A stretch of DNA of 64,000 bases from Escherichia phage SDYTW1-F1-2-2_3. A model generated the notes under the pieces. The model saw only the letters and a program-made list of their open reading frames with translations. It was not told the origin of the DNA and did not search any database. This document shows, piece after piece, positions 19,084 to 19,101 of the stretch; position 1 is the first letter of the stretch; each line of letters begins with the position of its first letter. The stretch lies in the sequence record OR296290.1; one strand, given 5' to 3'. A program made the position numbers and the translations under genes.

Positions 19084-19101
19084 GCGTCATAGTACTAAAA
19101 G
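19084..19101 (-). promoter_or_regulatory. conserved 18-nt element GCGTCATAGTACTAAAAG (copy 1)
   Basis: Identical 18-mer also at 25127-25144; both lie within about 40 nt downstream (minus sense) of a gene stop. Confidence 0.4.

Follow-up and report, generated by a model that had tools for sequence, protein, structure and literature searches.

The stretch of DNA analysed here (the window) comprises 64,000 nucleotides of Escherichia phage SDYTW1-F1-2-2_3 (OR296290.1) and belongs to a phiEco32-like coliphage (Kuravirus, Gordonclarkvirinae) which is about 92-94% identical to many isolates. Its sequence is circularly permuted (or derives from a collapsed assembly), the terminal repeat of phiEco32 mapping to ~31223-31446. 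From this position it follows that leftward early and middle genes extend from 1 to ~31200 and that rightward late genes are found from ~32000 onwards. Within the leftward cluster two short intergenic gaps harbour an identical 18-mer which, in plus-strand coordinates, reads GCGTCATAGTACTAAAAG (Table 1). The sense of both copies is that of the minus strand. The stop codon upstream of copy 1 (19118-19120) terminates a homologue of gp94 consisting of 38 amino acids, that upstream of copy 2 (25162-25164) a homologue of gp120 consisting of 147 amino acids. Counted in minus sense, the distance from stop codon to element amounts to 16 nt for copy 1 and to 17 nt for copy 2. A first-pass annotation of the window had reported the exact 18-mer at these two positions, had placed each copy 10-40 nt past a leftward stop codon and had described similar flanks for both; all of this is recovered by our analysis, GGAGG being present with a 1-nt offset.

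Some further features of the early region shall be mentioned for orientation. Amid the early genes lies a tRNA-Arg(TCT) gene (21745-21821, minus strand), which is annotated correspondingly in seven related records including those of phiEco32, IME267, Paul, EP335, 4E8 and EK010, and is not annotated in the records of KBNP1711 and PAS59. Two segments of phiEco32 are missing from the window, namely gp91-gp92 (684 bp, junction at ~18779-18783) and most of gp118/gp119, an adhesin-like "tail protein" (773 bp, junction at ~24962-24968). Both junctions are located shortly downstream, in sense direction, of copies 1 and 2.

Table 1. Positions of the repeated element, its conserved core and neighbouring structures within the window (plus-strand numbering).
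Feature	Position	Strand	Remarks
18-mer copy 1, sense CTTTTAGTACTATGACGC	19084..19101	-	between gp94 homologue (19118-19234) and gp93 homologue (18779-19012)
18-mer copy 2	25127..25144	-	intergenic, downstream of gp120 homologue (25162-25605)
Core TACTATGACG of copy 1	19085..19094	-	predicted nick between 19091 and 19090 (TACT/ATGACG); invariant in relatives
Core TACTATGACG of copy 2	25128..25137	-	predicted nick between 25134 and 25133; invariant in relatives
Third site TACTGTGACG	59722..59731	+	in late ORF of gp26 homologue (57797-62422), sense strand; predicted nick between 59725 and 59726
Hairpin CGCC-N8-GGCG	19071..19086	-	starts inside copy 1 core; -3.9 to -4.4 kcal/mol, z -0.6
Hairpin GACGC-N10-GCGTC	25112..25131	-	starts inside copy 2 core; z -2.5
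Hairpin GGAAGA-AAA-TCTTCC	59731..59745	+	directly 3' of third site; z -2.0
Perfect hairpin GCGTAGGGAATTCCCTCTACGC	19040..19061	-	downstream (sense) of copy 1; annotated terminator in phage 4E8; separate feature
Intrinsic terminator	25064..25081	-	~45 nt downstream (sense) of copy 2; separate feature
Second intrinsic terminator	24977..24996	-	downstream of copy 2; separate feature

The first-pass annotation had considered an exact 18-mer occurring twice in 64 kb very unlikely to arise by chance. In first-order Markov simulations, however, an exact repeated 18-mer turned up in 3 of 40 simulated 64-kb windows (~7%), and the window itself contains a second, unrelated exact 18-mer repeat, CGGTCAGTACGCTGGAGT, at 51777-51794 and 58216-58233 on the plus strand. 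The repeat alone is thus only moderately improbable, and its significance arises from the invariance of its core at orthologous places in three genera. As to the second repeat, it is translated in frame to GQYAGV in two late ORFs, namely 51121-52200 and the gene 26 homologue, and may represent a domain shared between virion proteins or a conversion tract.

In phiEco32 the ortholog of copy 1 is located at 63060-63077 in the gap between gp94 and gp93, that of copy 2 in the gap between gp120 and gp119, where the sequence reads TACTGTGACG. Alignment of both gaps from nine phages representing the three genera Kuravirus, Nieuwekanaalvirus and Suseptimavirus reveals an invariant block on the sense strand, TACT(A/G)TGACG. 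Pattern scanning of IMG/VR yielded 10 loci, four of which are unrelated chance matches, while protein-anchored scans contributed five further loci from IMG/VR and eight from metagenomes. Within 25 distinct 40-nt contexts from the three genera positions 1-4 and 6-10 of the block are 100% conserved and position 5 is either A or G, the conservation of the flanks ranging from 44% to 92%. A third copy had escaped the notice of the first-pass annotation. Located at 59715-59732 on the opposite strand, this copy deviates from the 18-mer by three mismatches and possesses the same core. The conserved unit therefore measures 10 nt rather than 18 nt, and the identity of copies 1 and 2 over 18 nt reflects lineage-specific flanks (a pyrimidine tract plus TAG upstream, a GC hairpin or C downstream) and not the recognition core. 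The base at position -1 behaves accordingly, being G at all three Kuravirus sites and C in the other two genera and in Salmonella phage 7-11; the sole exception is copy 2 of EP335, which looks recombinant.

If both strands are searched for (T/A)ACTRTGMC, phiEco32, IME267, KBNP1711 and the window yield exactly three matches apiece. Every one of them reads TACTRTGACG and occupies an orthologous place, two being intergenic on the minus strand and one lying in late gene 26 on the plus strand. For the 10-mer TACTRTGACG three observed occurrences in the window compare with 0.2 expected (P ~1e-3), while the 9-mer TACTRTGMC, with three observed versus 2.3 expected, shows no numerical enrichment. A near-site with one mismatch, TACTGTTACG, is present at 39687-39696 (minus strand). 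It belongs to the template strand of the major head gene, at whose 3' end it is located; it is kept in phiEco32 (8513) and IME267 (8368) and is not found in KBNP1711. A comparison by hand of the deposited genome start points of related records with the coordinates of the sites revealed no coincidence.

The third site is embedded in a low-complexity segment of the gene 26 homologue, which has accumulated substitutions as well as indels between genera. The codons ..T ACT GTG ACG are present in all three genera, and the preceding codon varies between AGT (Ser), ACT (Thr) and GCT (Ala) with its final T kept. Since the background identity at 4-fold degenerate sites of this gene amounts to 0.47 among the three genera, the synonymous conservation of the third site is supportive and exceeds the background only modestly, so that it does not constitute a strong argument alone. 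Its location within coding sequence fits a DNA site better than a promoter, terminator or ribosome binding site signal.

In the window a small hairpin starts inside or directly 3' of each of the three sites (Table 1). The copy 1 hairpin has a GACGCT/AGCGTC stem in KBNP1711, the copy 2 hairpin has a stem of 7 bp in IME267 (z -3.7) but is absent from KBNP1711, and the third-site hairpin is weaker or absent in the other genera. The stems found in phiEco32-like phages are CGCC/GGCG, GACGC/GCGTC, GACGCT/AGCGTC, GACGCTC/GAGCGTC and GGAAGA/TCTTCC, and at most copies the 5' arm begins in the GAC(G) of the motif. Although such a hairpin accompanies six to seven of the nine phiEco32-like sites, hairpins at the sites of 7-11, LUZ24 and tf are no better than background; we accordingly abandoned the idea that the hairpin is part of the site and treat it as an optional, lineage-specific accompaniment. 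As it is present at most phiEco32-like copies and not in 7-11, LUZ24 or tf, the local anatomy of the sites is not identical among these phages. The elements were also rejected as intrinsic terminators, as the small hairpins lack U-runs and the true terminators are separate features.

Site-specific nicks in phage genomes, such as those of T5, phiKMV-like and tf/LUZ24-like phages, have been known for decades. In Pseudomonas putida phage tf, 14 localised single-strand interruptions were mapped to the consensus 5'-TACT/RTGMC-3', the nick following the fourth base, occurring in >90% of molecules and being repairable by ligase (PMC3517423). The same consensus is present eight to nine times on one strand of the genomes of LUZ24, PaP3 and phiMR299-2 (PMC3517423). 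In the LUZ24-like phage Ab22 pile-ups of reads at GTACTATGAC and GTACTGTGAC mark interruptions (PMC4482731), and nanopore data of Rembedalsseter revealed 13 nicks at WACTRTGAC (PMC11780129). Such nick motifs are located in CDS in 88% of cases, and the one systematic survey concluded that the tf-type motif does not occur beyond a cluster of 61 Pseudomonas phages (PMC11780129).

All three sites of the window agree with TACTRTGMC/WACTRTGAC, and each of them is followed by G. According to our own scan, G likewise occupies position 10 of 8 of the 9 LUZ24 sites and of 10 of the 14 tf sites, and every LUZ24 site has G at base -1. The sequence of copies 1 and 2, GTACTATGACGC, is letter for letter that of three LUZ24 sites; that of the third site is GTACTGTGACGG. 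The three places occupied by the sites are common to Kuravirus, Suseptimavirus and Nieuwekanaalvirus. They are, however, not confined to one strand, two being located on the minus and one on the plus strand, in each case the sense strand. A comparable orientation is observed elsewhere, as 12 of 13 sites in 7-11, 12 of 14 in tf and 8 of 9 in LUZ24 follow the gene direction.

Salmonella phage 7-11 (NC_015938) contains 13 TACTRTGMC sites compared to 2.35 expected (P 1e-6), 12 on the minus and one on the plus strand; the corresponding values are 9 versus 1.2 for LUZ24 and 14 versus 1.1 for tf. G follows the motif at 11 of the 7-11 sites, which yields the consensus AC-TACTGTGAC-G, matching the CAAC-TACTRTGACG form of Suseptimavirus and Nieuwekanaalvirus. 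ACTACTGTG is the commonest 9-mer of the 7-11 genome, and seven of the sites are located within its rightmost 14 kb (early region). Occasionally, the RTG of the motif coincides with an annotated start codon, namely those of gp138 and gp089 of 7-11, of tf_04, tf_15 and tf_41, and of gp47 of LUZ24. With respect to the window, an ORF starting from the ATG of copy 1 was rejected, as it is in frame with gp93 but lacks a Shine-Dalgarno sequence and its frame is closed in KBNP1711; the one starting from the ATG of copy 2, comprising 17 codons, was likewise rejected.

Aeromonas phage LAh_9 (NC_048776), whose primase/helicase is 56% identical to that of the window, lacks TACTRTGMC. Instead, it carries about eight copies of (T)ACTACGGTGAC, where ~0.05 are expected. 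This sequence can be dissected into TACT + ACG + GTGAC(G), i.e. the same two half-sites separated by a 3-nt spacer. Copies are located, e.g., at 14789, 16080, 19254, 24167, 26756 and 36255 on the plus and at 86356 and 12048 on the minus strand; their strand follows the gene direction and one of them lies in a giant late gene. The pattern suggests a bipartite site which co-evolves with its enzyme.

The phages which share the motif are related beyond it. tblastn reveals that the host phage possesses the replication and packaging core of LUZ24 and tf: phiEco32, LUZ24 and tf have in common the large terminase, portal, scaffold, major capsid and tail proteins, furthermore a 5'-3' exonuclease, DNA polymerase, a separate pol-exonuclease and an amidoligase cluster, and a T7 gp4-like primase/helicase with 45-47% identity. 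Almost all of these genes are also present in 7-11. A hunt for the nickase yielded no candidate. For the HNH protein encoded by the window (63099-63500) a search for homologues in LUZ24, tf and 7-11 retrieved none. The small protein gp58 (phiEco32 42583-42900, located just outside the window) has counterparts in LUZ24, tf and 7-11 with 59-64% identity (63-64% in LUZ24 and tf) and is thereby more conserved than DNA polymerase; a search for a Pfam domain in it yielded none.

Considering the invariance of the core at orthologous places in three genera, the element is a shared, selected signal, most likely a protein recognition site, and in this respect the first-pass annotation, which had proposed a shared signal, finds support. 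More specifically, we consider it probable from sequence, conservation and phylogenetic context that the 18-mers constitute two of three strand-specific nick sites of the tf/LUZ24 type, cut between T4 and R5. According to the proposed mechanism, phiEco32-like phages keep 5'-TACT/RTGACG-3' three times, in two gaps of the leftward early cluster and once within late gene 26, and a phage-encoded nicking activity would cut the motif-bearing strand between T4 and R5 at the positions predicted in Table 1. As judged from tf, LUZ24-like phages and Rembedalsseter, this cut would leave a ligatable nick with 3'-OH and 5'-P ends in virion DNA, presumably introduced late in infection or during packaging and presumably sealed after injection. 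The rule that sites lie on the sense strand can be read as selection against nicks in the template strand. A search of literature other than the primary publications on phiEco32 (Savalia 2008, Pavlova 2012) retrieved no report of nicks in phiEco32-like phages or 7-11, so that the motif seems so far unreported as a tf/LUZ24-type nick site in phiEco32-like coliphages.

As the sites occur on both strands and follow transcription, a role linked to transcription or exerted at the RNA level is conceivable. Short, strand-specific signals carried by the sense strand, either inside long operons or ahead of them, are known from ops/RfaH and from sigma-dependent pauses at -10-like sequences. The element could be recognised during transcription, in the non-template DNA strand or in the RNA, for instance as a -10-like (TAnnnT) sigma-dependent pause, as an ops-like site at which a phage factor for elongation or antitermination is recruited, or as a site where RNA is processed or bound. 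Apart from the orientation of all three window sites, of 12 of 13 sites in 7-11 and of those in LAh_9, the location of copy 2 directly upstream of two strong terminators and of copy 1 upstream of a hairpin agrees with such a role. Furthermore, both TACTAT and TACTGT fit TAnnnT, and the publication on 7-11 expects an undefined antitermination mechanism. In tf, however, DNA is physically nicked at the same motif, and two of the nicked sites belong to the template strand of local genes; the third site of the window is devoid of a downstream terminator, and most 7-11 sites are buried deep within ORFs. Outside phiEco32-like phages no conserved RNA structure accompanies the motif, and a search of 18500-25700 with Rfam covariance models (E up to 1) matched only the tRNA-Arg. 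An RNA processing site, in particular, fits poorly with the third copy in an essential-looking ORF of 1541 codons and with a DNA-nick motif in related phages. The ops sequence (GGCGGTAGnnTG) bears no similarity to TACTRTGACG. A lambda-type nut site (boxA CGCTCTT(T)A plus boxB) was rejected as boxA is not conserved at the element: boxA-like CGCTCTTTC or CGCTCTTT occurs only at copy 2 of some phages, whereas at this position copy 1 reads CGCCTCTCT and copy 2 of KBNP1711 CGTTTCTCT. Taken as a whole, we regard a co-transcriptional signal as rather unlikely.

The surroundings of both intergenic sites are mosaic. Homology to Suseptimavirus ends right after copy 1. Copy 2 is preceded by other genes in Paul and EP335, and at a distance of 165-300 nt from the sites the window differs from phiEco32 by indels. 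These junctions are compatible with recombination stimulated by nicks, though intergenic DNA is mosaic anyway. Conversely, the repeat might be a non-functional recombination scar or gene-conversion tract left at mosaic junctions of the early region, a notion with which homology to other genera starting or stopping at the elements as well as the frequency of chance repeats in the simulations would agree. It appears very unlikely given that the 10-nt core is invariant at three loci in three genera, one of these loci being coding, and that 7-11, tf and LUZ24 exhibit a massive enrichment of this motif.

That the element acts as a leftward promoter is highly improbable; a promoter was among the functions which the first-pass annotation had suggested. 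TACTAT, as -10 element of a sigma-70 promoter, would match TATAAT at four of six positions, and each of the two copies occupies an intergenic position ahead of a gene. Yet, a sigma-70 scan detected no promoter-like site at either copy, the promoter count of the region equalling that of shuffled sequences; there is neither a -35 hexamer at a spacing of 16-18 nt nor an extended -10 (TGn), the genera differ in the sequence upstream of the element, and the third copy is located within an ORF. Recognition by the phage sigma factor gp36 fares no better. The gp36 element tAATGTAtA has no match within one mismatch at either copy, while exact matches are present at 40288 and 57795. Promoters of gp36-sigma resemble the element in being short, single-element, phage-specific signals conserved across phiEco32-like phages; they differ in sequence and place, being located 6-8 nt before mapped transcription starts, and, unlike them, the element lies in the early region away from published promoters. 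Published early promoters are present only upstream of the homologues of genes 128 and 124 (PMC4281155). Near-consensus sigma-70 promoters on the minus strand of the window (10-11 of 12 consensus matches) were found in agreement with these published locations at 28728-28700, 28279-28251 and 27451-27423, i.e. 2-3.6 kb upstream of copy 2 in non-coding spacer. This 1.8-kb spacer (27337-29100), besides the three promoters, contains members of a 23-nt repeat family (27903, 28870, plus 32335). Finally, a palindromic operator recognised by a repressor of the phage, for example the HTH protein encoded at 19983-20306, likewise put forward in the first-pass annotation, is extremely improbable, because the 8-bp palindrome TAGTACTA, although indeed present in this phage at two intergenic copies, becomes AACTACTA or AGCTACTA in Suseptimavirus and Nieuwekanaalvirus while the asymmetric core TACTRTGACG stays invariant, and because the third copy lies in coding sequence.

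Returning to the assignment as nick sites, it would extend the distribution of tf-type sites to well-studied enterobacterial phages (phiEco32-like phages and 7-11) and would narrow the search for the enzyme to the limited set of core genes common to these lineages. With three sites, two of which are non-coding, the phage would offer a minimal system amenable to mutation in E. coli. Moreover, such nicks would affect long-read sequencing, the calling of termini and possibly the engineering of Kuravirus therapeutic candidates. As a more speculative extension, which we put forward as possible rather than probable, a bipartite, strand-specific system consisting of TACT and GTGAC(G) may be common to a podophage supergroup comprising LUZ24/tf-like, 7-11-like, phiEco32-like and LAh_9-like phages, the latter with a 3-nt spacer (TACT-ACG-GTGAC). 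Its strand would follow transcription outside the Pseudomonas branch, and three fixed sites would be left in the phiEco32-like phages. If this were true, the nicks would have a regulatory or mechanistic role, e.g. in staged genome entry, in transcription-coupled events or as recombination hot spots at module junctions, rather than being a passive by-product of packaging, and an E. coli model with only three sites would render the 50-year-old question of the purpose of the nicks and of the enzyme genetically tractable.

Among known nicking systems, those of T5/BF23 and phiKMV-like phages resemble the predicted one in that a few fixed, strand-specific and ligatable nicks are present per genome, the number in phiKMV-like phages being comparable. 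The consensus sequences of T5 (R/GCGCRGG) and phiKMV (CGACxxxxxCCTA/CTCCGG) are, however, unrelated to TACTRTGACG, as are the phages themselves (PMC3517423). The nicks of T5 are non-essential (PMC3517423, PMC11780129). Compared to tf and LUZ24, the phiEco32-like phages have fewer sites (3 in 77 kb as against 9-14 in 45 kb), which are distributed over both strands, always in sense, instead of being restricted to one physical strand. In addition, a hairpin follows most phiEco32-like copies and none follows the sites of tf and LUZ24, and the nick itself is in the present case a prediction from sequence. On the other hand, the sites share with those of tf, LUZ24 and Rembedalsseter an identical core including the R position, the preferred G at position 10 and the strand-specific motif. 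In all of them positions are conserved among relatives and sites are found in intergenic as well as coding DNA, and the phages have packaging and replication genes in common.
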